From the NCBI GenBank assembly GCA_948432605.1, contig CAOJCV010000002.1, positions 1 through 43,325 on the forward strand: a DNA stretch of 43,325 nt, given 5' to 3'. Numbering within the stretch: the stretch's first letter is position 1; each line of letters starts with the position of its first letter. The DNA comes from an uncultured Mycoplasmatota bacterium. GTDB lineage: Bacteria > Bacillota_I > Bacilli_A > RF39 > UBA660. The position numbers were made by a program, and so were the translations under genes. This document shows, piece after piece, positions 7,604 to 28,183 of the stretch. The notes beneath the pieces are model-generated. The model searched no databases. It saw only the letters and a program-made list of their open reading frames with translations, and was not told the DNA's origin.

Positions 7604-7626
7604 ACATTCTATAAATGGGGGTAATT

Positions 7627-8442: not shown

Positions 8443-8447
8443 AAATT

Positions 8448-9716: not shown

Positions 9717-11501
9717 ATGTTAAAAGAAAAACTTGCTCAAATTCCAAATTTACCAGGAAGCTATCAAATGAAAAATAAAGATGGGATTATTATTTATGTT
9801 GGAAAAGCTAAAAATTTACATAAAAGAGTAAATTCTTATTTTAATCGCACCCAAACTGGTAAAACTGCCAAATTAGTTAGTGAGATTAATGATTTTTCAT
9901 ATATTGTCACTTCTAGTGAGTTGGAAGCTTTTTTGCTAGAAATTAATTTGATAAAAGAATATGATCCGAAATATAATATTTTGCTAAAAGATGATAAAAG
10001 CTATCCTTATATTGAATTTATTGAACATCCTTATCCTAAACTTAAAGTTTCAAGATATTTAATGGTGAAAAAGAAGGAACATAAGAAACTATATGGCCCT
10101 TATCCAAATGCGTATGCTGCTAGAAGAATTGTAAATTTGTTAAATCGTTTGTATCCTTTAAAAAAATGTGATGGAAATCCAAAAAAAGTTTGTCTTTATT
10201 ATCATATTGGAGAATGTTTAGGATTTTGTGAAAAGAAAGAAACTGTAGAAGATATTTTGAAAATGAAGGAAGACATTTTGGGTTTTTTAAATGGAAATGA
10301 TAAAATTTTAAAAGATAAAATTATGGAAAAAATTAATCTTTATAGTGAAGCTTTAAACTTTGAATTAGCCCTAGAATTAAAACGTGAATTAGATTATATA
10401 AATATTGTTTTAGATAAACAAAAAATTACGATTCAAGATTTTACAAATCGCGATGTTCTTGGTTATTATTTTGATCGTGGTTATATTTCTGTGCAATTAT
10501 TATTTTTAAGAAATGGAAAATTAGTAGGGGGACATACTGATATGTTTCCTGTTGTTAGTGATTTGGTAAGTGATATGGAGTCTTATTTACCTGCTTTTTA
10601 TTCTCGTCATGAAATTCCTAAAGAGATTCTTATTTCGAATGATATTCATACAGATGTATTGAATGAATATTTTGAACAAAAATTATTTAGTCCTCAAAAA
10701 GGGCAAAAAAAACATTTATTAGATATGGCAGAAGAAAATGCTAGAATTAATTTGGAAAATGAATTAGAAATAACTATTAAAAAAGAAAAATTAACAGAAA
10801 ATGCTAATGAGGAATTAAAGCGTATTTTACATTTAGATATTTTGGATCGTATTGATTTATTTGATAATTCTAATCTTTTTGGAGATTGGTCTGTTTCTGG
10901 AATGGTTGTTTTTAAAAATGGAATGCCTGCCAAAAATGAATATCGTAAATATAAAATTAGCTTTGATAAAAATGATGATTATAATATGATGCGAGAAGTA
11001 ATTTATAGACGTTATCAAAGGGCATTGGTTGAAAAAACTGAACTTCCTAATTTGATTATTGTGGATGGTGGAATTGGGCAAATTCATGCTTGTAAAGAAA
11101 TTCTTCAAGAACTTAATTTAAATATTAAAGTTTGTGGTTTAAAAAAGAATGATAAACATAGAACGAATGATTTAGTGGATGGGGATACTTTTTTGCTTGT
11201 TGACATTCCACGTGATAGTGATGTTTTTCATTATTTGACAAGAATGCAAGATGAGGTTCACAGATACACCATTACATATCACAGGACTATTAGAAGTAAA
11301 GGATCTATCAGTAGTGTCTTAGATGGTATTCCAGGAATAGGCACCAAAAGAAAAAAAGATTTGATAAAGAAATTTGGTAGTGTTACAAATATGGAAAATG
11401 CTAGTTTAGAAGAATTAGAAAAGATAGTTCCACATGACGTTGCAGAATCTTTAAAAAGTTATTTAATGAGTAGAAAAAATGAAAAAGAAAAGAGAAAATA
11501 A
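9717..11501 (+). CDS. uvrC: Excinuclease ABC subunit C
   Basis: It has a GIY-YIG N-terminus (GSYQMKNKDGIIIYVGKAKNLHKRVNSYF) and a C-terminal helix-hairpin-helix region (IPGIGTKRKKDLIKKFGS). It is 594 aa with an AAGGAGG RBS. Confidence 0.95.
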   Translation: MLKEKLAQIPNLPGSYQMKNKDGIIIYVGKAKNLHKRVNSYFNRTQTGKTAKLVSEINDFSYIVTSSELEAFLLEINLIKEYDPKYNILLKDDKSYPYIEFIEHPYPKLKVSRYLMVKKKEHKKLYGPYPNAYAARRIVNLLNRLYPLKKCDGNPKKVCLYYHIGECLGFCEKKETVEDILKMKEDILGFLNGNDKILKDKIMEKINLYSEALNFELALELKRELDYINIVLDKQKITIQDFTNRDVLGYYFDRGYISVQLLFLRNGKLVGGHTDMFPVVSDLVSDMESYLPAFYSRHEIPKEILISNDIHTDVLNEYFEQKLFSPQKGQKKHLLDMAEENARINLENELEITIKKEKLTENANEELKRILHLDILDRIDLFDNSNLFGDWSVSGMVVFKNGMPAKNEYRKYKISFDKNDDYNMMREVIYRRYQRALVEKTELPNLIIVDGGIGQIHACKEILQELNLNIKVCGLKKNDKHRTNDLVDGDTFLLVDIPRDSDVFHYLTRMQDEVHRYTITYHRTIRSKGSISSVLDGIPGIGTKRKKDLIKKFGSVTNMENASLEELEKIVPHDVAESLKSYLMSRKNEKEKRK

Positions 11502-11662: not shown

Positions 11663-12304
11663 ATGAAAAATAAAGTTTCTAAAAGAAGGGTTTATTATTT
11701 TATCAAAAGAGGATTTGATATTTTTTGTAGTATTATTGGTATATTAGCTTTAATTCCGTTATGGATTATTATAAAGATTAGCTATATGTGTACTGGTGAT
11801 TTTCATGGTGTTTTTTATAGACAAAAAAGGTTAGGTAGAAATGGAAAAATTATACATATTTTTAAATTTCGAACAATGGTTGTAAATGCGGAAGAAATTC
11901 TTCAAGAATGGCTTCAGAATAATCCTCAGAAAAGAGAAGAATATTATAAAGATAGAAAAATTGAAAATGATCCAAGAATTACAAAGATTGGGAATGTTTT
12001 AAGAAAAACTTCTTTAGATGAATTTCCTCAATTTTTGAATATTTTATTTGGAGATATGTCTTTGATAGGCCCTCGTCCAGTTGTTTTGGATGAAGCAGAT
12101 AATTATGGAAAAAATAAAGCTAAGTTTTTAAGTATGAGACCTGGATTAACTGGATATTGGGCAAGTAATGGCCGTAGTAATATTTCCTATGAAGAAAGAA
12201 TGAAAATGGAACTTTATTACATTGATCATTGTAGCTTATTACTTGATATTCAAATAATATTTGATACCGTTTTTGCAGTTATTAAAAAAGATGGTGCAAA
12301 ATAA
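11663..12304 (+). CDS. Small monotopic polyprenyl-phosphate sugar-phosphate transferase (Bac_transf family, PglC/WbaP C-terminal type)
   Basis: It has an N-terminal re-entrant helix (FDIFCSIIGILALIPLWIII), KFRTM, DPRITKIG, and the hallmark DEFPQFLNILFGDMSLIGPRP. Confidence 0.9.
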   Translation: MKNKVSKRRVYYFIKRGFDIFCSIIGILALIPLWIIIKISYMCTGDFHGVFYRQKRLGRNGKIIHIFKFRTMVVNAEEILQEWLQNNPQKREEYYKDRKIENDPRITKIGNVLRKTSLDEFPQFLNILFGDMSLIGPRPVVLDEADNYGKNKAKFLSMRPGLTGYWASNGRSNISYEERMKMELYYIDHCSLLLDIQIIFDTVFAVIKKDGAK

Positions 12305-12423
12305 AAGGAATTTTGTAAAAAAATGTAACTAATTTGAATAATTTGAAAATTATGTTATATTTATTTAAATATAGTTTTTTTGGGAAATGTTTTTTCTTTA
12401 AAACAAAGAATAGAGGTAGAATT

Positions 12424-13032
12424 ATGGAATATATGGAGTTGACAATTGAAGATGTAAAAAAATTGTCACTGGATTTAGCGAAAAAAATAAAAAAAGATTT
12501 TAACCCTGATTACGTTCTTTTTGTGGAACGAGGGTCTTTATATATAGGACAAGAAGTATCTAATTTTTTTGAAGTTCCTTTGTTAGGTGTTTCTGCTTCT
12601 CGAAAAAAAAGTAAATTGAAAAAAGTTGTTAGTCCATTATTGATTATAATTCCGTCATTTATAAAGAAAAAGCTTAGGGAAAAAGAAATAAATTCTAATA
12701 CTCATGAGAAAAATTCTGATAGAAAAGTTTTTTTGAATTTTGATTGTAATTTAAATAAAAAGAATGTTGTAATAGTGGATGATTCTGCAGATACAGGATT
12801 TAGTATTTTGCAGATTCAAAAAAAGTTAAAAGAAAAATATCCAGAAATTACAGTTAAAACAGCTTGTTTAAATGTATTAGATAAAAGTGTAAAAAATATT
12901 AAAATTGATTATTTTTTGATGAAAAATACTATGTTGTCAGGTCCATGGTCGAATGATTCAAAATTTCATAAACAATTTTTAATTGATTTTCAGCATTATA
13001 AGAGTGGAGGTTTTTTTTGTGAAAAATATTAA
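12424..13032 (+). CDS. Type I phosphoribosyltransferase-like (PRPP-binding) protein
   Basis: It carries the PRPP-binding signature NVVIVDDSADTGFSILQI. I set the start at MEYMELT (ATG 12424, GAGGT RBS). The track's longer ORF begins in low-complexity sequence. Confidence 0.6.
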   Translation: MEYMELTIEDVKKLSLDLAKKIKKDFNPDYVLFVERGSLYIGQEVSNFFEVPLLGVSASRKKSKLKKVVSPLLIIIPSFIKKKLREKEINSNTHEKNSDRKVFLNFDCNLNKKNVVIVDDSADTGFSILQIQKKLKEKYPEITVKTACLNVLDKSVKNIKIDYFLMKNTMLSGPWSNDSKFHKQFLIDFQHYKSGGFFCEKY

Positions 13033-13861
13033 TGAGGAGCTAAAAAAATTACAGTCAATAGAACTAGATATGTTACAAGAATTAAAAAAAATTTGTACTA
13101 AACATGACTTAAAATATTATATTATTGGAGGAACTTTATTAGGAGCAAAACGACATGGTGGATTTATTCCATGGGATGATGACATTGATGTAGCGATGCC
13201 AAGAAAAGATTATGATTCTTTTATTTCTATAGCCAAAAAGGAGTTGGTGCATCCTTATAAGATAAATCATTATACATTGGAAGATAGTGATCCTACAAAA
13301 TATGTTGCTGGGGTTGTTAATTCAGATGTTATTGTTTATGAAGATCGTGCATCAGAGTTTTCACAAAATTTGTGGATTGATATTTTACCAATAGATGCTT
13401 TACCAAATAGTTGGTTAGGGATGAGAATGTTTAAATTTAGAACTTATTATTATCGTGCTCTTTCTGGTTTTGTTAATATAGATAAAATTAGAAATATTAA
13501 AAGAAAGTGGTATGAAGTTGCTCTTATAAAATTTGCACAAATAATCCCTATTGGAAAAATTTTAAATCTTTTTAAAATTCGTATTAAAATGGATAAAATG
13601 TTTCGAAAACAAAATTATCTAAAAGCAAATTTTGTAGGAACTTTTTTAGGAAGATATGGGTTTCATGAAGTTGTTCCTAAATCTTATTTTGGTGAGGGAA
13701 CTATGATAGAGTTTGAAGGTATTCCTTTTAATGCTCCAGAAAAGCTTGAAGAATATTTGACTCATATGTATGGCGATTACATGCAATTACCACCAGAAGA
13801 TAAAAGAAATCCACATATTGTTAAGGTAGAATATAAAAACAAAAGAAAAGAGGAAAAATAA
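13019..13861 (+). CDS. LicD-family phosphotransferase (CDP-alcohol-dependent phospho-alcohol transferase)
   Basis: It has the hallmark LKYYIIGGTLLGAKRHGGFIPWDDDIDVAMPRKDY and the C-terminal YGDYMQLPP. The probable start is GTG 13019 (GGAGG RBS at 13006-13010), which overlaps the PRTase-like stop by 14 nt. The alternative ATG 13070 would remove conserved N-terminal residues. Confidence 0.85.
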   Translation: MKNINEELKKLQSIELDMLQELKKICTKHDLKYYIIGGTLLGAKRHGGFIPWDDDIDVAMPRKDYDSFISIAKKELVHPYKINHYTLEDSDPTKYVAGVVNSDVIVYEDRASEFSQNLWIDILPIDALPNSWLGMRMFKFRTYYYRALSGFVNIDKIRNIKRKWYEVALIKFAQIIPIGKILNLFKIRIKMDKMFRKQNYLKANFVGTFLGRYGFHEVVPKSYFGEGTMIEFEGIPFNAPEKLEEYLTHMYGDYMQLPPEDKRNPHIVKVEYKNKRKEEK

Positions 13862-13863
13862 AT

Positions 13864-14274
13864 ATGAAAAGAATTATAACTTATGGAACATATGACTTAT
13901 TACATTATGGACATATTAATTTATTGAAAAGAGCGAAAGATTTGGGAGATTATTTGATTGTAGGATTATCCACAGATGAATTTAATACAAATGCAAAAAA
14001 TAAGAAAACTTATTTTCCTTATGAAGTCCGTAAGCAATTGCTTGAATCATTGAGATTTGTAGATTTGGTTATCCCTGAAGAAAATTGGGAGCAAAAAAAG
14101 ACTGATATAGTAAAATATGAAGCAGATGTTTTTGTTATAGGTGATGATTGGGCTGGCAAATTTGATGAATTAAAAGAATTTTGTGAAGTTGTTTACTTAC
14201 CAAGAACACCAGAAATTTCTACTTCGAAAATTAAATCAGATTTAGGAATTAATTCTAGTAACCAGAAAGAGTAA
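13864..14274 (+). CDS. tagD: Glycerol-3-phosphate cytidylyltransferase (makes CDP-glycerol)
   Basis: It has YGTYDLLHYGHINLLKRAK (HxGH), the C-terminal TPEISTSKIK (RTxGISTT-like), and a length of about 136 aa typical of TagD/TarD. Confidence 0.9.
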   Translation: MKRIITYGTYDLLHYGHINLLKRAKDLGDYLIVGLSTDEFNTNAKNKKTYFPYEVRKQLLESLRFVDLVIPEENWEQKKTDIVKYEADVFVIGDDWAGKFDELKEFCEVVYLPRTPEISTSKIKSDLGINSSNQKE

Positions 14275-14278
14275 TTTT

Positions 14279-16174
14279 ATGAATGATTGTCCTTATGCAT
14301 TAGAAGAAATTTATTCTAAAATTGATACAGCTGAAATAATATCTTTTGATATTTTTGATACTTTAATTAAAAGAAATTTTTCTGAACCGAAGGATATTTT
14401 TTTTCAGGTACAACAGATATATAATAATACACATGATCAAAAAATTATTGATTATGTTGAGCAAAGAATAGAGGCCCAAAAAAAAGCTCGATTAGCCCAT
14501 ATAAAAGATGATTATACTTTTGAAGAATTATATAATTTTTTACAATATGAAGATTTTATAAAAAGTGAATTAAAAAATATTGAAATTGAAGTAGAATTAA
14601 ATGCTTGTGTTGCTAATGAGTGGATGAAAAATGTGTATGATTATTGCTTATCAAATAATAAGACTATTGTAATTGTTTCAGATATGTATCTTGATGAGAG
14701 TATTGTTTCTAAAATATTAAATAAAAATGGTTTTAATAATTATAAAAAGTTATATGTTTCTTCGAAATATAGATTACGAAAGAGAAATGGATTATTATTT
14801 AAAAAAGTGTTGTCAGATTTTTATATAAAACCTCAAAAGTTTTTGCACATTGGAGATTCTTATAAGAGCGATTATTTATTTGCTAGAAAAAATGGAATGC
14901 AAGCAGTTCATATTCCAACAAAGGTAAATAATTTGAATTATTATTGTAATAAAGTTCCTAATTCATTAGAAGAAAACTTTTTTTTGAATTTTTTAAATAA
15001 TAAAATTACTAGTCAAAGAAGTCGCGAAGAAAAAATTGGCTTTGAAATATTTGCACCATTGTTATATGGTTATATTCATTGGTTAAAAGAAAAGTTTTTG
15101 GAGAAAGATTTAAAAAATATTTTCTTTTGTTCAAGGGATATGTATTTAGTTTATAGTTTTTTTGATAAATATTTACCAGATTTTTTGTCACACTATTTTT
15201 ATATTTCAAGAAAGAGCATTCGAGGAGCTTATCTATATAAATATCCAACATTAGAAAATATAAATGATATTATATCTGTAAAAAAAATGTCTATGAAACA
15301 ATTTTTAAAAAATATTAATGTCAATGAAAATAATGTTAAGACAGTCTTACAAAATTGTGATTTAGATTTATCTATTTCTATAGATTTGGCGTCTCCTACT
15401 ACTAATTTTCGAAATTTTGTAGAAAAAATTAAAAAAGAAATTGTATCAAGTAATAAAGAAAAATATGATTTATTTTTAAAATATTTAAAGCAAATAAATT
15501 TTCAAGGAGAAGTTGCTTTGGTGGATAGTGGCTGGAATGCGACTTCACAATATTGTTTGAGTAAAATAATAGAAGATGTCAATATAAATGGTTTTTATGT
15601 TGGATTAGAGTACAAAGCATATGAAAGAATAAATCCAAGTTTGTTGCATGGTTATTTATTTTCTTTAAATAAAAATGTTCAGCTTATACCTTTTGTTAAT
15701 TCTTTTAAACAAGTTTTGGAGTCTGTGCTATCAGGAACACAACAGTCTGTAATAGGTTATCAATTAAATGAAGAGAACAAGGTTATTCCTGTTTTAGATA
15801 ACACAAGCGTGGAGATGCCAGTATTTGCTTTGGATGTTCAAAAAGGTATAATGTCTTTCTTACAAAACGCTTTAGAAAGCAATCTAAGTCTGTTTTGTTC
15901 AGAACAATTTTTATTTTATGGTATTTATAACGTGTCGACAAATCCAGATTTAAAAGATGTTAAGATTTTAACTAATTTTCAAATAAATAATCTTGAAATA
16001 AATTCCTACAATTATCCTACAAATAGTGTTATTTTCTATTTATTTCATCCAAAGTTCTTTTTTAAAGAATTCAAACAAGCACCGTGGAAAGTTGGGTATT
16101 TAAAAGCACTATTAAAAATTAAATTACCATATTATAAGATGTATAGATTTTTAAAAAAAATGACTAAGAGGTGA
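14279..16174 (+). CDS. HAD-phosphatase-like N-terminal domain fused to a ~400-aa uncharacterised C-terminal domain
   Basis: N-terminal HAD-like motifs are SFDIFDTLIKR, IVIVSDMY and HIGDSYKSDY. The remaining ~400 aa has no motif I recognise, although blocks such as FFCSRDMYLVY and VALVDSGWNATSQ look conserved. It ends in TGA just before the Wzx RBS. Confidence 0.6.
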   Translation: MNDCPYALEEIYSKIDTAEIISFDIFDTLIKRNFSEPKDIFFQVQQIYNNTHDQKIIDYVEQRIEAQKKARLAHIKDDYTFEELYNFLQYEDFIKSELKNIEIEVELNACVANEWMKNVYDYCLSNNKTIVIVSDMYLDESIVSKILNKNGFNNYKKLYVSSKYRLRKRNGLLFKKVLSDFYIKPQKFLHIGDSYKSDYLFARKNGMQAVHIPTKVNNLNYYCNKVPNSLEENFFLNFLNNKITSQRSREEKIGFEIFAPLLYGYIHWLKEKFLEKDLKNIFFCSRDMYLVYSFFDKYLPDFLSHYFYISRKSIRGAYLYKYPTLENINDIISVKKMSMKQFLKNINVNENNVKTVLQNCDLDLSISIDLASPTTNFRNFVEKIKKEIVSSNKEKYDLFLKYLKQINFQGEVALVDSGWNATSQYCLSKIIEDVNINGFYVGLEYKAYERINPSLLHGYLFSLNKNVQLIPFVNSFKQVLESVLSGTQQSVIGYQLNEENKVIPVLDNTSVEMPVFALDVQKGIMSFLQNALESNLSLFCSEQFLFYGIYNVSTNPDLKDVKILTNFQINNLEINSYNYPTNSVIFYLFHPKFFFKEFKQAPWKVGYLKALLKIKLPYYKMYRFLKKMTKR

Positions 16175-16177
16175 GTT

Positions 16178-17695
16178 ATGAGAACAAAGAATTCTATTCG
16201 TAATTTATGTTATGCATTTATAGGACAATTTTTTGGTTTAATAATAAGTTTTTTAGCACGAATGGTTTTTGTGCATACATTGAATGTGGAATATTTAGGA
16301 GTGAGTGGATTATTTACAAATATATTAAATATTTTATGTTTTACGGAACTCGGTATTGGGACTTCTATAGCATTCTGTTTGTATAAGCCATTAGAAGAAA
16401 GAGATACGGAAAAAATCAAAACTTTAATGTTTTTCTTTAAAAAAGTATATTGCTTTTTAGGGGTATTAATTCTTATTCTTGGTTGTTGTTTTTTACCTTT
16501 TTATAAGTTTACATTAAATGAAATTCCTAATATTTCTGATTTAAATTTAATTTATATATTATTTGTGATAAATACTGGAATTTCATATTTCTTTTCTTAT
16601 AAAAGAACTTTGGTAATTACAGATCAAAAAAGATATATTGCTACTATCTATCGTTATGTTTTCTATTTTTTTCTAAATGTTTTTCAAATTATTATTTTAT
16701 TATGGTTTCATAATTATATATTGTTTTTAATTCTTCAAATTATTTTTACTTTTTTAGAAAATTATTTCTTATCAAAAAAAGTAGATAAATTATATCCGGA
16801 ATTAAAAGAAAAAAATGTAAAAAATATTGAAAAAGAAGAGCTTCAAAACATAATAACAACCTTTAAATCTGTAGTCTATCACAAATTTGGTGGTGTTATA
16901 TTGAGAACAACTGATAATATTTGTATATCAAAAATTTTAGGTGTGTTTTTTGTTGGATTATATTCAAATTATTATATGATTACAAATGCTTTAGATACAA
17001 TTATTTCACAAATATTTAATTCTGTAGTGGCAAGTATTGGTAACTTAAATGTGAATAATACACGTGAAAAAATGGAAAATGTATTTCATAAAATCTTTTT
17101 TTTAAATTCTTGGATTTATGGTTTTTGTAGTATTTGTTTAATTTCTTTAGCAAATCCATTTATTGAATTATGGCTAGGAAAAGATTATATTTTAGATTTT
17201 TCTATTTTAATCGCGATTGTTTTGAATTTTTATATTTTTGGGATGCGTAAAACATGTATGACTTTTAGAGAAGCTACTGGTAATTATGAGTTAGATAAGT
17301 ATAGTCCGCTTATAGAAGCTGTGATTAATATTGTTTCCTCTATTATTTTTACTAAATTTTTTGGTTTAATAGGTGTTTTTCTTGGAACAATTTTAAGTTG
17401 TCTTTGTACTTGCTTTTGGTGGGAACCTTTAGTAATTTATAAAAAAAGTCTGAAATCAAATTTAACGGATTATTTTAAAAAATATTTTCTTTATTCGGTT
17501 GTAACTTTAGGTTTAGGTGTAGTAACAGTTTTATTATGTAGTTTTATTTCTAAAGTTAATTTTATAACGTTTTTTCTGAGATTATTTTTGTGTATTATAA
17601 TTCCTAATATTACATATTATTTTATTTATAGAGAAAATAAAGATTTTAATTTTTATAAAAGTTTAATTAAGAGAAAGGTGTGTAAAGAAGCATGA
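16178..17695 (+). CDS. Wzx-type polysaccharide flippase (MOP superfamily)
   Basis: This 505-aa polytopic membrane protein has the N-terminal pattern typical of polysaccharide-biosynthesis flippases (NSIRNLCYAFIGQFFGLIISFLARMVF). GAGGTGA RBS. Confidence 0.8.
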   Translation: MRTKNSIRNLCYAFIGQFFGLIISFLARMVFVHTLNVEYLGVSGLFTNILNILCFTELGIGTSIAFCLYKPLEERDTEKIKTLMFFFKKVYCFLGVLILILGCCFLPFYKFTLNEIPNISDLNLIYILFVINTGISYFFSYKRTLVITDQKRYIATIYRYVFYFFLNVFQIIILLWFHNYILFLILQIIFTFLENYFLSKKVDKLYPELKEKNVKNIEKEELQNIITTFKSVVYHKFGGVILRTTDNICISKILGVFFVGLYSNYYMITNALDTIISQIFNSVVASIGNLNVNNTREKMENVFHKIFFLNSWIYGFCSICLISLANPFIELWLGKDYILDFSILIAIVLNFYIFGMRKTCMTFREATGNYELDKYSPLIEAVINIVSSIIFTKFFGLIGVFLGTILSCLCTCFWWEPLVIYKKSLKSNLTDYFKKYFLYSVVTLGLGVVTVLLCSFISKVNFITFFLRLFLCIIIPNITYYFIYRENKDFNFYKSLIKRKVCKEA

Positions 17696-19062
17696 CATAT
17701 TTGTTTTTAATTTTAGTAATTTTGTTTTTGACAGTTATGTCATATCGATTATTTTCTAAGGATTTTTTATCTCCTTCTTTCTTATTGTGTATTTCTTTTC
17801 TTTTTGGGGTTGTTTGTTCTTTTTTTGGACGTTTAAGTTGGAATCCAATTGAAGAACTTCATTTAGAGACTTTATCCATTATTATTATAGGTTTATTTTG
17901 TTTTATTGTTGGAGAAATTATTGTTCGGTTATTCGTAAAAATAAAATTAAAAAAAATAGGAGAGCAAAAAAAGATAAATATAGAATTTTGGAAAATTATT
18001 ATTTCTTTCTTGTTCGTAACAATTACAATGGTTTTATATTTTTTTGAAATTCGAAGAATCGTTTTTCAGCTGGGACATAATACGAACAATATTAGCCAAA
18101 TTTTAAAATTATATCGAGAAACTACAAGTTTATATACTACTAAGTATGTTGGCACGGATTTATCGATTAATGTTATAGTTTCACAAATGAGAAAAGCATG
18201 TGATATGCTATGTTATTTATACATGTTTTTTCTAGTAAATAATGTTACGTGTCAATCATGGAAAGAAAGTTTTTTGAAAGGAAACCGTAAATTTAATATA
18301 GGTTATATTTTAATTATTTTGGTTTGTGCGATTTCTTCTTTCTTAACTGGTGGTAGAATGAAAATCATGAGTTATATTATAGGGTTTGTGTTTTTGTATT
18401 TGTGTTTGAGAACACGTAATAGTGAAATGAAAATTAATAAGAAAAAGATTATTAAATATTTTATGTTATCATCACTTCCTTTATTATTGTTTTTTTATAT
18501 AAGTTCAGCAATAGTTGGAAGAAAAAAAGATGTTTCTCCTTCAAGTTACGTATCATTTTATTTCGGTTCTGCTATAACTGGATTGGATAAATATGTAGAA
18601 GATCCAGCGAAAAAAAATGGAAGATTTGGTGAGGAAACATTATCAGGTATATATACTACTTTATATAAATTTCATTTAATTGATGAAACTGATCCTATTT
18701 CTTTACGTTGGTATCCATATCAAATTCAAGATACAGTCATTCACGCTAATATTTTTACATCTTTTCGAAGGTACTATCATGATTTTGGAACAACTGGGCT
18801 TGTTTTGTGTCAAATTTTATTTGGAATGATTATGGTATATTTATATTATAAAAGCACTAGTAGTAAAAATGTGTTGTATATAATATTTTATTCTTCAATT
18901 GTTTACATTTTATTAGATCATGTTCGTGATGATATATTTTTTAGAAACATTGTGCATTTTAATACAATAATAAATTTAATACTATTATCTATAGAGTATT
19001 ATTTATTAGTTCATTTTAGTTTTAAAGACTTGAGAAATTTTAAATTAAAAATAAAACGTTAA
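17692..19062 (+). CDS. Polytopic membrane protein, candidate Wzy-type repeat-unit polymerase
   Basis: The protein is 456 aa with many hydrophobic segments and no soluble catalytic domain. Its start overlaps the wzx stop (ATGA at 17692-17695). The assignment rests on position and topology only. Confidence 0.5.
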   Translation: MTYLFLILVILFLTVMSYRLFSKDFLSPSFLLCISFLFGVVCSFFGRLSWNPIEELHLETLSIIIIGLFCFIVGEIIVRLFVKIKLKKIGEQKKINIEFWKIIISFLFVTITMVLYFFEIRRIVFQLGHNTNNISQILKLYRETTSLYTTKYVGTDLSINVIVSQMRKACDMLCYLYMFFLVNNVTCQSWKESFLKGNRKFNIGYILIILVCAISSFLTGGRMKIMSYIIGFVFLYLCLRTRNSEMKINKKKIIKYFMLSSLPLLLFFYISSAIVGRKKDVSPSSYVSFYFGSAITGLDKYVEDPAKKNGRFGEETLSGIYTTLYKFHLIDETDPISLRWYPYQIQDTVIHANIFTSFRRYYHDFGTTGLVLCQILFGMIMVYLYYKSTSSKNVLYIIFYSSIVYILLDHVRDDIFFRNIVHFNTIINLILLSIEYYLLVHFSFKDLRNFKLKIKR

Positions 19063-19098
19063 AGTAGTCGATTCTTTACAATAATTAAATTTTAAATT

Positions 19099-19127
19099 TT
19101 GACAAATAATATGTGGAATGATAAAAT
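19099..19127 (+). promoter_or_regulatory. Internal SigA-type promoter for the surface-protein gene
   Basis: TTGACA (19099-19104), a 17-nt spacer, then TGaTAAAAT (-10 hexamer at 19122-19127). Confidence 0.5.
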
Positions 19128-19153
19128 GGTTATATAGAATTGGGGTAGAAAAT

Positions 19154-20443
19154 ATGAGAAAAAAAATTTTTAGGTTAGGTGTTCATCTTTTAATGTTTGT
19201 TTCATTTTTTAGTTTTGGATTTTTACTAGTCAATGCCCAAGATAAGGTTCAATCTATTTCATATAAAAAATTATTTGATGTTTCTTTGAAAGATGGATAT
19301 GAATCCTTTCAGGGAATGACAATTACAGATAAATACATTATTATTGCTATGATAAAAAATGACAATTCTAAAAGTGCACTTTTTGTTTATGATAAGAACT
19401 CTTATAATTTAGTAAATTTGGAAAATATGCAAAATCCAATTGAAACTTATGATATTGGACACGCAAATGATATGACATTTAATAAAGAAAAAAATGAGGT
19501 TTATATAATAAAAGGAAATGAAATAGTAGTTATCGATTCAGAGACATTTAATCAAAAAGAAAGTATTCCTTTAAGTAATAGTTATGGTGGAATTACATTG
19601 AATAAAGATAAACAATTTATTTTTCAAAAAAATAATAAAATATATATTATGAAAGATAATGTTGTTCAAAATGAATTTGATGCAATTACTAATTTGACTC
19701 ATCAAAATATTTCTTATTTTAATGGTAATATATTTCATACTTGTTATGAGTATGGAAAAGTTGGTTTGTATCAACCAGTATATGATGGGGTTTATGAAGC
19801 TGGAACTAATTTAATATATGTATATGATGAATCAGGAAATCAAGAAAATATTCTTTTTATACCTACTGGATATGGAGAGATAGAGGCTTTAGAATTTGAT
19901 GAAAATGGAATTCCTTTTGTTTTATTTAATTCCCCAGATAAATATGGTACAGTATATATTCCTATTTATAATGATGCTGTAGTGAAAATTTCTGTTTCTG
20001 ATGAGAGCACTACTGATGATTCCACTGCTTCTCTTGTTGATAAAAATGGCAATATTGAGACTGTTAATATAAAAGATGGAGTTTATAATTTTCAAGATCT
20101 TGTATATTATGAACCAGGTGTTTATGAATATTTTGTATTAAAAAGCATAAATAATTTAGAAAGAACTTCTGATGAAAGTATTAGAGTAACAGTAAAAGTA
20201 ACATATGATGCCACAACGAATCAGTTAATTGCTAATTCTGAATATGAAAAAAGTGGTTTTACAAAAGATGAGGTTATTGAGACGCCTATAGTTCCTGGTA
20301 ATACTTCTAATGAAATCTTAGAAGAAGAGATAGTTGAAAATCCTCAAACTGGTAATTATTTCCCTTTTTATATTCTTCCTATTATTTTAGGAGCTGGACT
20401 AGTATTTGTATTATTTAAAAGAAAATTTTTCTTTAAATTGTAA
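19154..20443 (+). CDS. Secreted, sortase-anchored surface protein (NPQTG sorting signal) with a pilin-like isopeptide-type C-terminal domain
   Basis: It has a signal peptide (MRKKIFRLGVHLLMFVSFFSFGFLLVNAQD). The C-terminus is ENPQTG, then a hydrophobic helix, then a KRKFFFKL tail. The block YYEPGVYEYFVLK...IRVTVKVTYD resembles the FctA/Spy0128-type pilin domain. I set the start at ATG 19154. Confidence 0.7.
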   Translation: MRKKIFRLGVHLLMFVSFFSFGFLLVNAQDKVQSISYKKLFDVSLKDGYESFQGMTITDKYIIIAMIKNDNSKSALFVYDKNSYNLVNLENMQNPIETYDIGHANDMTFNKEKNEVYIIKGNEIVVIDSETFNQKESIPLSNSYGGITLNKDKQFIFQKNNKIYIMKDNVVQNEFDAITNLTHQNISYFNGNIFHTCYEYGKVGLYQPVYDGVYEAGTNLIYVYDESGNQENILFIPTGYGEIEALEFDENGIPFVLFNSPDKYGTVYIPIYNDAVVKISVSDESTTDDSTASLVDKNGNIETVNIKDGVYNFQDLVYYEPGVYEYFVLKSINNLERTSDESIRVTVKVTYDATTNQLIANSEYEKSGFTKDEVIETPIVPGNTSNEILEEEIVENPQTGNYFPFYILPIILGAGLVFVLFKRKFFFKL

Positions 20444-20470
20444 AACTCTTTTTTTAGAGTTTCTTTTTTA
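20443..20470 (+). terminator. Rho-independent terminator after the surface-protein gene
   Basis: AAACTCT (20443-20449) pairs with AGAGTTT (20456-20462) across a 6-nt loop, followed by CTTTTTTT. Confidence 0.55.
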
Positions 20471-20507
20471 ATAAGTGTCAATTATTTTCTTTTAAATTAA
20501 TTTTTTT

Positions 20508-20535
20508 TTGAAAAAAGCAAATTATATAGTATAAT
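20508..20535 (+). promoter_or_regulatory. SigA-type promoter for the LCP-VanZ pair
   Basis: TTGAAA (20508-20513), a 16-nt spacer, then TATAAT (20530-20535). Confidence 0.4.
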
Positions 20536-20594
20536 ATCTATGAAAGTAGAAGTTATTTCAAATAGAAACTTTCAAGTAAAATAGGAGAGAAAAG

Positions 20595-22061
20595 ATGAAA
20601 AAAAGTAGTAAAAAAAATAGTAAGTATAGAATGATATCAAAATTTAGTCAATTATTGTGGATTTTATCTATATTGTTGATTATGTTGCTTGGGTATTTTA
20701 TTTATTCTTCTAATGTGTTGCCTTTAAAATATTTTTTAATCATAATTGGAATTTGTTTCGTATTTTTAGTGTTACATGGTTTTTTTGTATTGAAAAAGAA
20801 TACACGATTATGGTTATTAATTTTGCTAAATATTGTTACTTTAATTTTTATGTGTGGAGAAGTTTTTGCTATTACTAAAATTAGTGATATGATTAATTTT
20901 TTGAGAGAGAATTTAGCTAATCATTTTGAAACAAATGTTTACAATATTATTGTGAATAAAGATTCTTCTTATTCTAAAATTGATGATATAAAAAATAAAA
21001 CATTGAAAACTGTTAAAGATATGGAAGATTTAAATTTATTTGAAACAAGTGTGAAGAATAAAGTAGATGGATCTATAGAATATCAAGATAATATAGTTGA
21101 TTTATTAACTAAAATTAAAAATGATAAAGAGCTTATAGTAATTGTTAATTCAGGTAGTTATGACGCAATGGTTGAAATGGATGATAAGTTTGAAGATAGT
21201 GTTAAAATTATTGATACTATAGTTATTACAGTTGAAATTCATAATAATGAAACCGGCATTGATATTACAAAAGACCCATTTGTTCTTTATTTAAGTGGTA
21301 TTGATACAAGAAGTAATTATTTACCTTCAAGAAGTTTAAGTGATGTTAATATTCTTTTGGCTATTAATCCAAAAAATAAAAGAATTTTGATGATTCATAT
21401 TCCTAGAGATTATTATGTTCAAATTCATGGTACTTCAGGTTATAAAGACAAACTAACTCACACTGGAACTATTGGTGGTGTAGAGTTAACTATGAAAACG
21501 CTTGAAGATTTACTGGAAATAGAACTACCATATTATTTTAGAGTTAATTTTAATGCTGTTGTTAATTTAGTAGATGCAATAGGAGGAATCAATATTAATT
21601 CTGATGTAGATTATTCTTTTACATGTTGGACTGATCGTAGTTGTGTGTTCCATCCTGGATTAAATTCTGTAGGTGGGAAATGTGCTCTCGCATTTGCTAG
21701 AGAGCGTCATGCGTATGCAACGGGAGATAGACATCGTGGAGAAAACCAAGAACAAGTCTTAGAATTAGTTATTAATAAAATTACAAGTTCAAGTACTATT
21801 ATTTCTAAATATACTGATATTTTAAATGCATTAAATGGAACGTTTCAAACTAATATTTCAATGGAAGAAATTACAAATTTAGTTAAAATGCAAATTGATG
21901 ATATGAGTCCTTGGAGGATGGAAACTTTAAATGTAGATGGAACAGGTGCTTACATGCCAACTTATAGTTATCCAGGACAAAATTTGTATGTTATGGAACC
22001 AAAGATGGATACTGTTACAAAAGCTATTGAGAAATTAAATGAAGTATTGGAGACCCCTTAA
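20595..22061 (+). CDS. LytR-CpsA-Psr (LCP) family glycopolymer-peptidoglycan ligase
   Basis: An N-terminal multi-TM region is followed by an extracellular LCP core (YLSGIDTR, SDVNILLAINP, MIHIPRDYYV, ALAFARERH, GDRHRGENQEQV). AGGAGAG RBS. Confidence 0.85.
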   Translation: MKKSSKKNSKYRMISKFSQLLWILSILLIMLLGYFIYSSNVLPLKYFLIIIGICFVFLVLHGFFVLKKNTRLWLLILLNIVTLIFMCGEVFAITKISDMINFLRENLANHFETNVYNIIVNKDSSYSKIDDIKNKTLKTVKDMEDLNLFETSVKNKVDGSIEYQDNIVDLLTKIKNDKELIVIVNSGSYDAMVEMDDKFEDSVKIIDTIVITVEIHNNETGIDITKDPFVLYLSGIDTRSNYLPSRSLSDVNILLAINPKNKRILMIHIPRDYYVQIHGTSGYKDKLTHTGTIGGVELTMKTLEDLLEIELPYYFRVNFNAVVNLVDAIGGININSDVDYSFTCWTDRSCVFHPGLNSVGGKCALAFARERHAYATGDRHRGENQEQVLELVINKITSSSTIISKYTDILNALNGTFQTNISMEEITNLVKMQIDDMSPWRMETLNVDGTGAYMPTYSYPGQNLYVMEPKMDTVTKAIEKLNEVLETP

Positions 22062-22495
22062 TGAAAAAGAAAGTCATTTCTTGGGCTTTACTTATAATTT
22101 GGATGATCGTAATCTTCTTTTTTTCTCATCAACCAAGTATAAAAAGTAGTGGTGTTTCGAATAAAGTATTGGAAATAATCGATACTATAATACCATTTTC
22201 TCTAAATTATGAATGGAGCTCTTTTGTAATCCGAAAACTTGCCCATTTTACGGAGTATGCGATTTTAGGAATACTTATGATACGTCTTGTGAATGTATAT
22301 TTAAAAAAAGAAAAAAATGCTATATATTTTGCTATTTTTTGTTGTTTTTTATATGCTATTAGTGATGAAATTCATCAGCTTTTCATTGTAGGGAGAAATG
22401 GTAATGTTGTAGATGTATTAATTGATACTTGTGGAAGTATGTTTGGTATTTTTCTTCTTCTTATTATTTCAAAATTATTACATAAGCATGTATAA
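22061..22495 (+). CDS. VanZ-family membrane protein
   Basis: It is 144 aa with 4 hydrophobic segments and the motifs RKLAHFTEYAILG and SDEIHQLFIVGRNGNVVDVLIDTCG. Its start overlaps the LCP stop (TAATG). Confidence 0.8.
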   Translation: MKKKVISWALLIIWMIVIFFFSHQPSIKSSGVSNKVLEIIDTIIPFSLNYEWSSFVIRKLAHFTEYAILGILMIRLVNVYLKKEKNAIYFAIFCCFLYAISDEIHQLFIVGRNGNVVDVLIDTCGSMFGIFLLLIISKLLHKHV

Positions 22496-22805: not shown

Positions 22806-23882
22806 ATGGATTCTTTTGTTAAAATAATGTATTTATTTTTAGGAGTATTTCTTTTATATGCTTTATTTCAATTATTTTCGTTTCTATATATTAATTATAG
22901 AAAAATCAAAAGAAAAGTTCAGCAAATTATTTTGAAAAAATTTATGAAAAAAGAAGGAATTCTTTATGTATCTTTAGCTCATGAAAATTTTTTGTTGCAT
23001 AAATTAAAAAAAATGGATTATTTTATTAATTTTGTAGAAGTTACAGAAGAGAGTGAAAAAGGTAAAAGAGAAAATTATTTAATGAATTTGAAACCTGTTT
23101 TTGAAAAGCTTATTTCAAAATATGAAAAGAAAAAAATTAGTTTTCAAGTCTATTTTGTTTCTTTTCTTGAAAAATATCCAATAATTTATAATGATGATTG
23201 GAATAAAATTGTTGAATATCTTATTCAATGTTGTAGTAGTAAATCAATTTATTTAAGAGAAAGTGCATTGAGTTCTTTATATAAAATTGGAAATGAGAGT
23301 TATTTAGAGGAAGCTTTGAGGAATATGAATTATTTAAAAATTAATCACCCAACTAAATTGTTAACGGATGGATTTATTCGTTTTGAAGGTTCTATAAATA
23401 ATTTTGCTGAAATGTTAAAAGAAAATATTTCTAATTATAGTGATTCTTATAAAATATCTTGTTTGGAATATTTTAGTTATCAGAAAATAGATTTTCGAAA
23501 AGGAATTTTTCAATTGTTATCTTCTCCAGAAGAGACTAAAGAAGTAAAACTTGCTTGTATTCGATATTTTGCAAATTCAATTTATGAACCAGTAAGTAAA
23601 ATGCTTTATGAACTCTTAAAAGAAGATCAAGATACATTTGAATATGCTGCTGTAGCCGCGAATGTTTTAAAAAGTTATCCAAGTAAAGAAACTTTAAAAC
23701 ATTTAGTAGAGGCTTTACGAAGTAAAAATTGGTATGTTAGAAATAACGCTGCTTGTGCAATAGTGTCTTTTGCAACTGAGAAAGAACTTGAGTCATTGAA
23801 AAACTTTGATGATAAATATGGAAGAGAAGCTTTAATGTATCATATTTCTATGAAAAAGGATGTGGTAAAATGTCAAAAATAG
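22806..23882 (+). CDS. Membrane-anchored HEAT/armadillo-like repeat protein
   Basis: It has an N-terminal TM helix (MYLFLGVFLLYALFQLFSFLYI). The remainder is helical-repeat-like, with HEAT-type signatures (SIYLRESALSSLYKIG; NWYVRNNAACAIVSF). GGGAG RBS. Confidence 0.5.
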   Translation: MDSFVKIMYLFLGVFLLYALFQLFSFLYINYRKIKRKVQQIILKKFMKKEGILYVSLAHENFLLHKLKKMDYFINFVEVTEESEKGKRENYLMNLKPVFEKLISKYEKKKISFQVYFVSFLEKYPIIYNDDWNKIVEYLIQCCSSKSIYLRESALSSLYKIGNESYLEEALRNMNYLKINHPTKLLTDGFIRFEGSINNFAEMLKENISNYSDSYKISCLEYFSYQKIDFRKGIFQLLSSPEETKEVKLACIRYFANSIYEPVSKMLYELLKEDQDTFEYAAVAANVLKSYPSKETLKHLVEALRSKNWYVRNNAACAIVSFATEKELESLKNFDDKYGREALMYHISMKKDVVKCQK

Positions 23883-28128: not shown

Positions 28129-28157
28129 TTGACATTTTGTCTTAATTTTGGTATTCT
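28129..28157 (+). promoter_or_regulatory. SigA-type promoter for the 564-aa orphan gene
   Basis: TTGACA (28129-28134), a 17-nt spacer, then TGgTATTCT (-10 hexamer at 28152-28157). Confidence 0.4.
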
Positions 28158-28183
28158 ATACACTCGTTAAGGGGGGCATTTTA

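Follow-up and report, generated by a model that had tools for sequence, protein, structure and literature searches.

An operon without conventional glycosyltransferase genes in an uncultured Mycoplasmatota bacterium encodes a predicted bipartite ribofuranosyltransferase and a candidate PRPP-dependent glycan phosphoribosyltransferase

The window analysed here is a 43,325 nt stretch of contig CAOJCV010000002.1 (GCA_948432605.1) from an uncultured Mycoplasmatota bacterium, the genome of which is 78.55% complete; all genome-wide absences are to be read within that scope. Positions 11663-22495 are occupied by ten tightly packed genes, all on the + strand, which were confirmed by checking of ORF positions to have the order and content given in the first-pass annotation. 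Intergenic distances across the operon range from -14 to +151 nt, and no terminator-like sites were found on the + strand within it. The best reading of these genes, in keeping with the earlier proposal, is of a cell-wall sugar-polymer locus, the product of which is Wzx/Wzy-polymerised and LCP-anchored.

The first gene (11663-12304) encodes a small priming transferase (Bac_transf; PF02397, E = 1.8e-60) that matches the WbaP subfamily profile at 2.5e-78. Among PDB entries, the WbaP catalytic domain scores best (8t53, 1.4e-55), with PglC matching at only 1e-28, and the protein is, as judged from these matches, a small monotopic polyprenyl-phosphate hexose-1-phosphate transferase with a WbaP-like catalytic domain only. 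The polytopic protein encoded at 16178-17695 has 11 hydrophobic segments and homologues that are 53-55% identical in two comparison loci (L007 and L061); it returned no PDB or Pfam match and scored below cut-off against NF041503 (WZX_like, 1.8e-9), and is put forward tentatively as a candidate repeat-unit flippase. The product of 17692-19062 is a Wzy-type repeat-unit polymerase, with 137.6 bits against TIGR04370 (5.3e-40; cut-off 40) and a further match to PF14296 at 2.1e-7. The surface protein encoded at 19118-20443 has a signal anchor, a weak match to a pilin isopeptide domain and a C-terminus composed of ENPQTG, a hydrophobic stretch and KRK; this NPQTG sorting signal marks it as sortase-anchored, and it is probably a co-transcript of the operon that stands outside glycan assembly. 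The operon closes with a CpsA-like LCP enzyme, a glycopolymer-peptidoglycan ligase that has three TM segments at its N-terminus (20595-22061; PF03816, 1.2e-36; NF051849, 1.4e-86) and a VanZ-family membrane protein (22061-22495; PF04892, 5.3e-24).

A Pfam profile search revealed no GT1, GT2 or GT4 domain in any ORF of 11663-22495, and PF04464 (TagB/TagF) was not found in the 78.55%-complete genome, so the initial observation that GT-A/GT-B signatures and TagB/TagF are absent holds literally. Two unassigned proteins, the product of 12424-13032 and the C-terminal ~400 aa of that of 14279-16174, had been singled out as possible sites of elongation, and rightly so. Pfam and NCBIfam recognise only the N-terminal HAD part of the latter, 631-aa protein. 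Using phmmer, residues 15-541 were matched to 7SHG, a 'Ribofuranosyl transferase' (5.3e-20), while a profile of 64 homologues matched 7SHG at 1.5e-69 and the CrpP-CriT region of Haemophilus Bcs3, to which the protein is similar in both sequence and fold, at 4.7e-58. The best Foldseek matches of the AlphaFold model (pLDDT 92.5) were 7shg (5.4e-25) and 8a0c (3.6e-23) over ~600 columns, values for 7shg and 8a0c/8a0m ranging from 5e-25 to 3e-21, with HAD matches over residues ~20-215. The protein divides into an N-terminal HAD phosphoribose-5-phosphatase (PRP) domain (14279-14960), which keeps the motif SFDIFDT (FDIFDTLI in Bcs3, the core being identical), and a C-terminal CriT-like glycan phosphoribosyltransferase (gPRT) domain (15000-16174). 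In the former, D24 aligns with the CrpP nucleophile D386 and K168 with CrpP K548; in the latter, S285/R286/D287, S310/R311/R315, and D416 and E481 align with Bcs3 S678/R679/D680, S707/R708/R712, and E818 and E874, respectively. Each catalytic residue that has been named in Bcs3 (PMC10299916) aligns with an identical one in the 631-aa protein, with the exception of D416 versus E818. D24, K168, R286, S310, R311, D416 and E481 are invariant across the 64-sequence family alignment, whereas D287, S285 and R315 were assigned from sequence plus consensus motifs; on alignment, all active-site residues compared are conserved or conservatively replaced.

The sequence, fold and active-site residues of the 631-aa protein clearly place it in the bipartite HAD-phosphatase plus gPRT family. 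PRP-gPRT is a glycosyltransferase fold of non-Leloir type that was reported in 2022-2023 (PMC10299916, PMC11127046). Established examples of the two-step gPRT/PRP chemistry come from Klebsiella O4/O7, Hib and C. jejuni Cj1432 (PMC11231755, PMC11127046, PMC12096443), and, by analogy with these characterised relatives, the 631-aa protein would transfer beta-ribofuranose from PRPP; a PRPP synthetase-like ORF is encoded in the genome. The first-pass annotation had suggested profile and structure searches for cryptic glycosyltransferases and had named a clear glycosyltransferase fold in the C-terminal domain of the HAD fusion as grounds for giving up its own interpretation, and such a fold is what these searches revealed.

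The possibility was considered that the locus is not self-sufficient, and that conventional glycosyltransferases encoded elsewhere add sugars to the polymer. A divergent GT2-like membrane protein gene (23870-25084) lies on the same strand 1.4 kb downstream of the operon, and other contigs carry 9 GT2 and 6 GT4 genes, with GT2/GT4 clusters on contigs C5 and C57. However, the downstream gene is separated by 310 nt from a HEAT-repeat gene that precedes it, and its product has a synthase-like topology, with one N-terminal and two C-terminal hydrophobic segments. Moreover, the syntenic locus L061 is likewise devoid of Leloir glycosyltransferases, and self-containment is normal for glycan loci. A contribution from these genes is accordingly considered unlikely, if still worth bearing in mind.

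The LicD-family phospho-alcohol transferase gene (13019-13861; PF04991, 1.6e-45, full length) has a GTG start at 13019, preceded by a GGAGG ribosome-binding site, that overlaps the stop of the upstream PRTase gene by 14 nt. The gene for TagD, a glycerol-3-phosphate cytidylyltransferase (13864-14274; TIGR01518, 3e-57, 192 bits against an equivalog cut-off of 165), begins 2 nt after LicD ends and is followed after 4 nt by the gPRT gene. L025 shows the same LicD-TagD-HADgPRT order, and several further loci have TagD or LicD in the vicinity of the gPRT gene. The product of TagD is CDP-glycerol, and the LicD family includes phosphocholine transferases. Proposed ribitol-phosphate transferases also belong to the LicD family (PMC7188991), the best PDB match of the LicD protein is the ribitol-phosphate transferase FKRP (2.5e-5), and sequence does not reveal which donor such an enzyme uses; LicD could feasibly transfer phosphocholine or ribitol phosphate, with TagD serving another pathway. 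This seems improbable, since LicD and TagD are separated by only 2 nt, Pfam/NCBIfam searches found no choline or CDP-ribitol genes within the operon, and the alternative consumer of CDP-glycerol, TagB/F, is absent from the genome as sampled. In A. pleuropneumoniae, poly(glycerol-3-phosphate) is the product of the LicD-family enzyme CpsC, which has been described as a polyol-phosphate polymerase and whose family draws on CDP conjugates (PMC11666461). Given this precedent and the adjacency to TagD, LicD here would act as a CDP-glycerol:glycan glycerophosphotransferase, and the CDP-glycerol-dependent transfer envisaged at the outset remains plausible.

The remaining protein, of 202 aa, is encoded at 12424-13032 and has a type I PRTase fold (PF00156 Pribosyltran, 8.6e-13) with a canonical PRPP loop, VVIVDDSADTGFS. 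Where a flexible loop would normally be expected, it carries a basic/hydrophobic insert of 35 aa in which one proline is invariant. The best Foldseek matches of its model (pLDDT 85.6) are purine PRTs (4trb at 5.8e-13), in sequence, too, it is closest to purine PRTs of archaea and bacteria, and profile-profile comparison with the gPRT domain was not significant (probability 2%). Among 400 genomes from the class, a single one carries a member of this family, indicating that it is not housekeeping, and all 21 of its sequence clusters sit in glycan loci, with fusions to GT2, LicD, PHP_C and CDP-alcohol phosphotransferase. A PHP gene lies directly upstream of, and overlaps, the PRTase gene in 16-17 of the 21 clusters, and the PRTase is predicted to be almost always translationally coupled to this phosphoesterase. 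The PHP partner keeps invariant His, Asp and Glu residues matching canonical PHP metal-binding motifs; its identification as CpsB was rejected, since true CpsB is present alongside. The PHP gene is present in L061, which otherwise has the same gene set, but is missing from the locus described here, where HAD-gPRT is found instead. Indeed, HAD-gPRT stands beside the PRTase in the PHP-less loci (window/L088, L039 and L068) wherever the flank suffices, as opposed to 1 of 17 PHP-bearing clusters (Fisher p = 0.0035), although many comparison contigs are short, and limited flank length accounts for part of the absence from PHP-bearing loci. Comparison with the orthologue in L088 gave a dN/dS of 0.12, indicating that purifying selection acts on the small PRTase in the PHP-less lineage. 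We know of no type I PRT that makes an O-glycosidic bond; the small PRTase is nonetheless put forward as a candidate for a PRPP-dependent glycan phosphoribosyltransferase, and the family to which it belongs is rare and confined to glycan loci.

The protein might alternatively be a nucleobase-salvage enzyme (XGPRT/APRT-like) or an operon relic, with ribose added by the 631-aa enzyme only, as its purine PRT relatives, its PRPP loop and the lack of a PHP partner here would allow. Since no PF00156 protein other than the PRPP-synthetase-like ORF was found elsewhere in the 78.55%-complete genome, redundancy offers no argument against a role in purine salvage. The rarity of the family within the class, its restriction to glycan-assembly loci, its fusions, its insert and the purifying selection nevertheless make salvage or decay an improbable explanation. 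Slightly harder to sustain is the idea that the small PRTase makes undecaprenyl-phosphate ribose-5-phosphate, which, once dephosphorylated and flipped, would serve as donor outside the membrane, in a soluble analogue of UbiA-type PPPRS three-component systems. To our knowledge, a phosphate nucleophile is unprecedented for a type I PRT, the operon has no recognisable GT-C-type gene, and the fusion partners are enzymes of cytoplasmic assembly (GT2, LicD) as opposed to GT-C or flippase proteins. These points weigh against the suggestion of interfacial membrane binding offered by the insert, and against the precedent of a known PRPP-to-polyprenyl-phosphate route (PMC11127046). Finally, that no glycosyl transfer follows priming, the repeat unit being a primed sugar phosphate extended with glycerol phosphate by LicD, would fit the lack of GT-A/GT-B Pfam domains and the adjacency of TagD to LicD but is scarcely credible, since the 631-aa protein belongs over its full length to a characterised glycosyltransferase family with conserved catalytic residues, and the minimal unit first proposed for want of a glycosyltransferase falls with it.

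The preferred reading, with a probability of about 0.7, is of a wall polymer of ribofuranose and glycerol phosphate built on undecaprenyl diphosphate without a Leloir glycosyltransferase, all donors being supplied by central metabolism and TagD. In the repeat unit, the primer hexose would be joined by one or two PRPP-derived ribofuranoses and by glycerol phosphate, the contribution of LicD. The small WbaP-like transferase would place hexose-1-phosphate on Und-P (the family is evident, the sugar presumed); the 631-aa protein would act as the bipartite ribofuranosyltransferase, its HAD domain stripping the 5-phosphate to leave beta-Ribf; and LicD would move glycerol phosphate from CDP-glycerol, made by TagD, onto the growing unit. 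Comparative genomics suggests that a second phosphoribosyl residue is probably added to the lipid-linked intermediate by the small PRTase, and that the role of the absent PHP phosphatase has likely passed to the HAD domain of the 631-aa protein. The sequence gives no order for the ribofuranosyl, LicD and small-PRTase steps. The completed unit would be flipped by the Wzx-like protein, polymerised by Wzy and joined to peptidoglycan by the LCP enzyme. Such a route for a teichoic-acid-like polymer had been regarded as unusual; pneumococcal teichoic acid, however, is likewise modelled as a Wzx/Wzy-route polymer. Enterococcal EPA decorations are also modelled on this route, with LicD-family enzymes (PMC7188991). 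What stands of the first interpretation, then, is the Wzx/Wzy-LCP locus and a plausible transfer of glycerol phosphate, and not the minimal unit or the singularity of the route. The novel lead of the locus is the small PRTase, which may represent an undescribed PRPP-using, sugar-adding enzyme working beside the 631-aa protein.

Profile searches confirmed all of the genes that the first-pass annotation had named in the operon at 11663-22495 (+ strand), and its observation that GT-A and GT-B glycosyltransferases are absent is literally true, in that no GT1, GT2 or GT4 Pfam domain was detected within the operon. The reported lack of a TagB/TagF-type CDP-glycerol glycerophosphotransferase was also borne out, with no match to PF04464 in the host genome under conditions in which control genomes were matched; the PF04464 enzyme of the classical type I wall teichoic acid pathway (TagB/TagF/TagGH) is missing from this genome (1.06 Mb, 77 contigs, 78.55% complete). 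The genes of the operon lie on the same strand with intergenic gaps of -14 to +151 nt, and are flanked upstream by uvrC (9717-11501) and on the other side by a cell-wall block comprising a transpeptidase-type PBP, MraY and a FtsW/RodA-family gene. No terminator-like site was found on the + strand inside the operon, the promoter and terminator scan as a whole being uninformative in DNA of 26% GC (window G+C ~26%; 121 promoter-like sites versus 104 expected).

The core of a Wzx/Wzy pathway is present, in the form of a priming transferase (11663-12304; 213 aa, WbaP-like, PF02397), Wzy (17692-19062; TIGR04370, above cut-off) and a CpsA-like LCP ligase (20595-22061; PF03816), and a VanZ gene (22061-22495) ends the operon. 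Assignment of the Wzx-like protein (16178-17695) is weaker: it has 11 hydrophobic segments and matches NF041503 at 1.8e-9, far below cut-off, and no match was returned by a PDB search or a low-stringency Pfam search. Located between the Wzy and LCP genes is a sortase substrate (19118-20443) with the uncommon sorting signal NPQTG, its C-terminus comprising ENPQTG, a hydrophobic stretch and KRK; the sole family match of this protein is a weak one to a pilin isopeptide domain. Elsewhere in the window, neither Pfam nor NCBIfam gave a match for three ORFs at 7615-9272 and 28148-29878 (275, 274 and 576 aa). Of these, the first two adjoin and are of equal size, and so may be paralogues, and the third sits between mraY and the FtsW/RodA-family gene. 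The start of the window (30-1148) encodes a DUF285/leucine-rich-repeat protein, a type first described in Mycoplasma.

The broader claim of the first-pass annotation, that the locus is without a glycosyltransferase, fails, since the C-terminal domain of the 631-aa HAD fusion protein (14279-16174), in which a GT fold had been named as a refuting finding, matches solved glycan phosphoribosyltransferases (gPRTs) by sequence, fold and residues. Pfam and NCBIfam recognise only the N-terminal HAD part of this protein. A plain sequence search against the PDB nevertheless returned 7SHG, entitled 'Ribofuranosyl transferase', with an E-value of 5.3e-20 and coverage of residues 15-541, and the CrpP-CriT region of the Haemophilus protein Bcs3 aligns with the 631-aa family profile at 4.7e-58. 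The AlphaFold model (pLDDT 92.5, pTM 0.90) was matched by Foldseek to 7shg (5.4e-25) and to 8a0c and 8a0m (~4e-23, 3.6e-23 for 8a0c, to 3e-21) over ~600 columns spanning both domains, the next-ranked matches being plain HAD phosphatases at ~1e-8. Identity to 7SHG in the Foldseek alignment is only ~21%.

The catalytic residues of Bcs3 have counterparts throughout. The HAD nucleophile, D386 in Bcs3, corresponds to D24, which lies in the motif SFDIFDT (FDIFDTLI in Bcs3, with an identical core), and K548 of HAD motif III corresponds to K168. Within the gPRT domain, S678, R679 and D680 of loop 1 are matched by S285, R286 and D287, and S707, R708 and R712 of loop 2 by S310, R311 and R315; the loop 3 acid, E818, is replaced by D416, and the proposed base, E874, aligns with E481. 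D24, K168, R286, S310, R311, D416 and E481 are invariant in a 64-sequence alignment of the family. In characterised enzymes, the gPRT domain uses PRPP to place a beta-linked ribofuranose-5-phosphate on an acceptor sugar, and the HAD-family PRP domain then strips the 5-phosphate (PMC11127046, PMC11231755, PMC10299916, PMC12096443). By family membership, then, the 631-aa protein is the operon's missing glycosyltransferase, with a predicted ribofuranosyl transfer activity; the host genome carries a PRPP-synthetase-like ORF.

The 631-aa family comprises at least 453 protein clusters and at least 560 confirmed loci in species-representative genomes of Firmicutes, Bacteroidota, Proteobacteria, Saccharibacteria and others. 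Since those members of so large a family that are named in the source records are called only 'HAD family hydrolase' or 'FMN phosphatase YigB (HAD superfamily)', ribose-containing surface polymers are systematically missed in annotation. At one comparison locus (L068, 9893-12009) the HAD and gPRT halves are encoded by two distinct ORFs (333 and 366 aa), representing either a natural split or a frameshift; splitting of the two halves is reportedly possible in vitro for Bcs3.

Upstream of the 631-aa gene of the window, the genes are tightly packed. LicD (13019-13861) starts with GTG behind a GGAGG site and overlaps the stop of the preceding PRTase gene by 14 nt, TagD (13864-14274) begins 2 nt past LicD, and the 631-aa gene follows 4 nt past TagD. 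LicD matches PF04991 over its full length (positions 1-227/227, 1.6e-45) and TagD scores above the equivalog cut-off. The LicD-TagD-HADgPRT order was found again at another locus (L025), and about a dozen of 80 unrelated loci have TagD or LicD in the vicinity of the gPRT gene. LicD-family enzymes have a range that extends beyond phosphocholine: LicD homologues are the proposed ribitol-phosphate transferases in Wzx/Wzy-dependent teichoic-acid decorations of the enterococcal polysaccharide EPA (PMC7188991), and CpsC of A. pleuropneumoniae, a protein of the LicD family, which uses CDP-conjugate donors, makes poly(Gro3P) (PMC11666461). Given the proximity of TagD, the recurrence of the gene order and these precedents, it is reasonable to infer that LicD uses CDP-glycerol and transfers glycerol phosphate.

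The second PRPP-binding protein of the operon, a small PRTase of 202 aa (12424-13032), is predicted to adopt a canonical type I PRT fold (model pLDDT 85.6). Its PRPP loop (VVIVDDSADTGFS) contains VDDSADTG, which fits the type I pattern of acidic-acidic-x-x-D-T-G, and purine PRTs of archaea and bacteria head the Foldseek matches, with E-values from 6e-13 to 1e-8 (4trb, 5.8e-13; 1vdm, 7e-12). A 35-residue insert, basic and hydrophobic with an invariant proline (modelled with low confidence, pLDDT 55-74), is a feature of the family and occupies the place of the flexible loop of the purine PRTs, and would be compatible with interfacial binding beside a lipid-linked acceptor. Profile-profile comparison with the gPRT domain revealed no detectable homology (probability 2%), and the two were treated as independent folds. 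An apparent PRTase relative of 293 aa (P0130), whose gene terminates an unrelated contig with the annotation Ppx-GppA, was set aside as uninformative.

The small PRTase family is rare, being represented by 85 clusters (50% identity) among 1.84 billion representatives worldwide at a threshold of E <= 1e-30, and among 400 genomes of the class by the window's own genome only. It has neither a housekeeping distribution nor a salvage context; all 21 sequence clusters, accounting for 87 loci, together with three named hosts, lie within glycan loci, with neighbours that include priming transferases, GT2, GT4, LicD, EpsG/Wzy, flippase and LCP genes. Fusions join the PRT domain to GT2 (P0140, P0212), PHP_C (P0157, P0168, P0141), LicD (P0180) and a CDP-alcohol phosphotransferase (P0192). 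Distribution, context and gene fusions tie the small PRTase to glycan assembly rather than to nucleotide salvage. In P0192, a metagenomic protein of 416 aa, the fused partner is a CDP-alcohol phosphatidyltransferase membrane domain, which hints at coupled phospho-alcohol and phosphoribosyl transfer. One PHP-PRT glycan locus closes with a PRPP synthetase paralogue (L001, 18949-19887), which fits a dedicated PRPP supply but was seen at only this one of the 87 loci.

In 16 of the 21 clusters, or 17 if a truncated one is included, a PHP(+PHP_C) phosphoesterase gene is located directly upstream of the PRTase gene, and the ORFs, as called, overlap by 38-71 nt. The pair is arranged likewise in Veillonella parvula, Acidaminococcus fermentans and Bacillus sp. 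X1. The PHP partner has invariant His, Asp and Glu residues matching the canonical PHP metal-binding motifs, and its identification as the capsule tyrosine phosphatase CpsB was rejected because genuine CpsB_CapC genes coexist with it at two loci (L119 and L182). The literature search found no description of a PHP and phosphoribosyltransferase pair in capsule loci, and nothing relevant on ribofuranose in the Veillonella O-antigen. The V. parvula locus (L178, 3063-18618), which is of Wzx/Wzy type, encodes a TagB/F-like Glyphos_transf protein, PHP-PRT, LicD, a TagD-GFO fusion and IspD/ADH genes of CDP-ribitol type, and points to a teichoic-acid-like surface polymer of complex make-up in this diderm Firmicute. 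At the O-antigen/capsule-type locus of A. fermentans (L180, 2735-7681), the priming transferase and the PHP-PRT pair are separated by several genes (those of an AAA_21/RloB pair and of a reverse transcriptase of 519 aa (RVT_1), and an ORF of 228 aa) that look like a defence or retroelement island.

No PHP gene is present in the window, where the 119 nt between the priming transferase and PRTase genes are non-coding with no remnant ORF, and PHP matches in the host genome are confined to two long open frames (1540 and 977 aa) that are read as the two DNA polymerase III genes. The PHP-less arrangement is shared by a relative with 75% identity (L088), and the dN/dS of 0.12 between the two PRTase genes (dS 1.29, near saturation) indicates that the PRTase is maintained without PHP. 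Moreover, all PHP-less clusters with enough flanking sequence (window/L088, L039 and L068) have a HAD-gPRT gene directly beside the PRTase, versus only 1 of 17 PHP-bearing clusters, that of L061, which is syntenic with the window apart from its PHP gene. The association between PHP absence and HAD-gPRT presence has a Fisher's exact p value of 0.0035, or 0.0023 once the three named hosts are added, with the caveat that short contigs are numerous in the sample. The most economical interpretation is that PHP can be replaced by the HAD phosphatase of the bipartite enzyme; alternatively, the product of the small PRTase may here keep its 5-phosphate, or the PRTase may be inactive.

These components can be arranged in a pathway in which Und-P would be primed with a sugar-1-phosphate by the priming transferase, the sugar probably being a hexose since the enzyme is closer to WbaP than to PglC. 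The 631-aa enzyme would then add one ribofuranose, LicD would add glycerol phosphate from TagD-made CDP-glycerol, and the small PRTase may, at about even odds, add a second phosphoribosyl residue. Flipping by the tentatively assigned Wzx, polymerisation by Wzy and ligation by LCP, the last two being recognised at family level, would complete the process. PRPP would be the sole source of post-priming sugars in such a repeat unit. In the most far-reaching interpretation, which has a probability of roughly 0.5, the small PRTase would represent a previously uncharacterised class of cytoplasmic, PRPP-dependent glycan phosphoribosyltransferases with a type I PRT fold and an interchangeable 5-phosphatase, usually the coupled PHP phosphoesterase, and in the window, L039 and L068 the HAD domain of the gPRT protein, and the operon would be a Leloir-free glycopolymer pathway.

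Glycosyltransferases encoded outside the operon may contribute further sugars, since 9 GT2 and 6 GT4 genes are present on other contigs and a divergent synthase-like GT2 gene lies nearby at 23870-25084. However, the latter is found in only 3 of 41 genomes of the family and is separated from the operon by a 310-nt gap and a HEAT-repeat gene, and the syntenic locus L061 is equally without Leloir enzymes. The HEAT-repeat protein, which has an N-terminal TM segment, overlaps the 404-aa GT2-like membrane protein by 13 nt (22806-25084 for the pair); in the latter the PF00535 match is limited to residues 56-101 and the best PDB match is a ceramide glucosyltransferase (0.0019). A 28%-identical paralogue of the pair is present on another contig (C8).

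With regard to known systems, bipartite PRP-gPRT ribofuranosyltransferases were reportedly described by Kelly et al. 2022, and are said to include the T. composti enzyme of structure 7SHG and Klebsiella O4 ORF5 and O7 ORF7. The 631-aa protein shares with these the layout of an N-terminal HAD and a C-terminal PRPP-dependent gPRT domain, the motifs and the position in a glycan locus. The characterised enzymes work alongside Leloir glycosyltransferases in ABC-transporter-dependent O-antigen pathways of Gram-negatives, whereas the 631-aa protein belongs to a Wzx/Wzy/LCP operon with no Leloir enzyme adjacent, in a Firmicute-like host whose genome is small. Bcs3 of Hib (CroT-CrpP-CriT; 8A0C/8A0M) follows the same logic as that proposed here, with Ribf-5-P from PRPP, dephosphorylation and addition of a CDP-polyol-derived polyol phosphate to give a ribose/polyol-phosphate polymer, but employs a TagF-like GT-B domain, CDP-ribitol, processive cytoplasmic polymerisation and ABC-transporter export in place of separate LicD and TagD proteins (CDP-glycerol), an Und-PP-linked repeat unit and Wzx/Wzy.

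Pneumococcal teichoic acid is a Wzx/Wzy-dependent teichoic-acid-type polymer, and the EPA decorations of E. faecalis share with the window a priming PGT, LicD-family polyol-phosphate transfer, Wzx, Wzy and LCP (PMC7188991). Such polymers being already known, the first-pass suggestion that a teichoic-acid-like polymer made by Wzx/Wzy departs from the usual route is not supported. Both systems use GT2/GT4 enzymes for their sugars, whereas the only recognisable sugar-adding enzymes of the window are PRPP-dependent. CpsC belongs with the window LicD to a family that uses CDP-conjugate donors, but it assembles a linker of poly(Gro3P) upon a Kdo glycolipid, as part of a group 2 capsule system in a Gram-negative; the window LicD may add one unit or several. 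The small PRTase has the core fold and PRPP loop of type I purine PRTs (S. solfataricus GpT-1, 4TRB; P. horikoshii, 1VDM; XGPRT) but differs in its glycan-locus context, PHP coupling, GT2/LicD fusions, sporadic distribution and 35-aa insert. UbiA-type polyprenyl-phosphoribose synthase systems (Citrobacter youngae O1; mycobacterial DPPR synthase) also draw ribose from PRPP and include a 5-phosphatase step (PMC11127046), but these three-component systems require an integral-membrane UbiA protein and a GT-C enzyme acting outside the cytoplasm, neither of which is recognisable in the operon. Chemically, the proposed polymer would be similar to the Hib and E. coli K18 capsules, which are of ribose/polyol-phosphate type, and its assembly would be like that of pneumococcal or enterococcal Wzy-dependent teichoic acids.

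A family known from 2022 onwards thus accounts for the apparent lack of a glycosyltransferase in a Wzx/Wzy locus. The novelty lies in a complete pathway without a Leloir glycosyltransferase, in the occurrence of an established gPRT-PRP enzyme together with LicD/TagD in an LCP system of Gram-positive type, and in a small type I PRTase whose glycan-locus family is uncharacterised and which here is without its usual PHP partner. Should the small PRTase prove to be a glycan phosphoribosyltransferase, it would constitute a third enzyme class for ribofuranose incorporation and the first type I PRT fold to form an O-glycosidic bond, with V. parvula, A. fermentans and Bacillus sp. X1 as cultivable hosts for the family, and would offer a new glycoengineering tool. 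For the organism itself, a Wzx/Wzy wall polymer of this design would need only PRPP and CDP-glycerol and no nucleotide-sugar glycosyltransferase, an economy that fits a genome of ~1 Mb.
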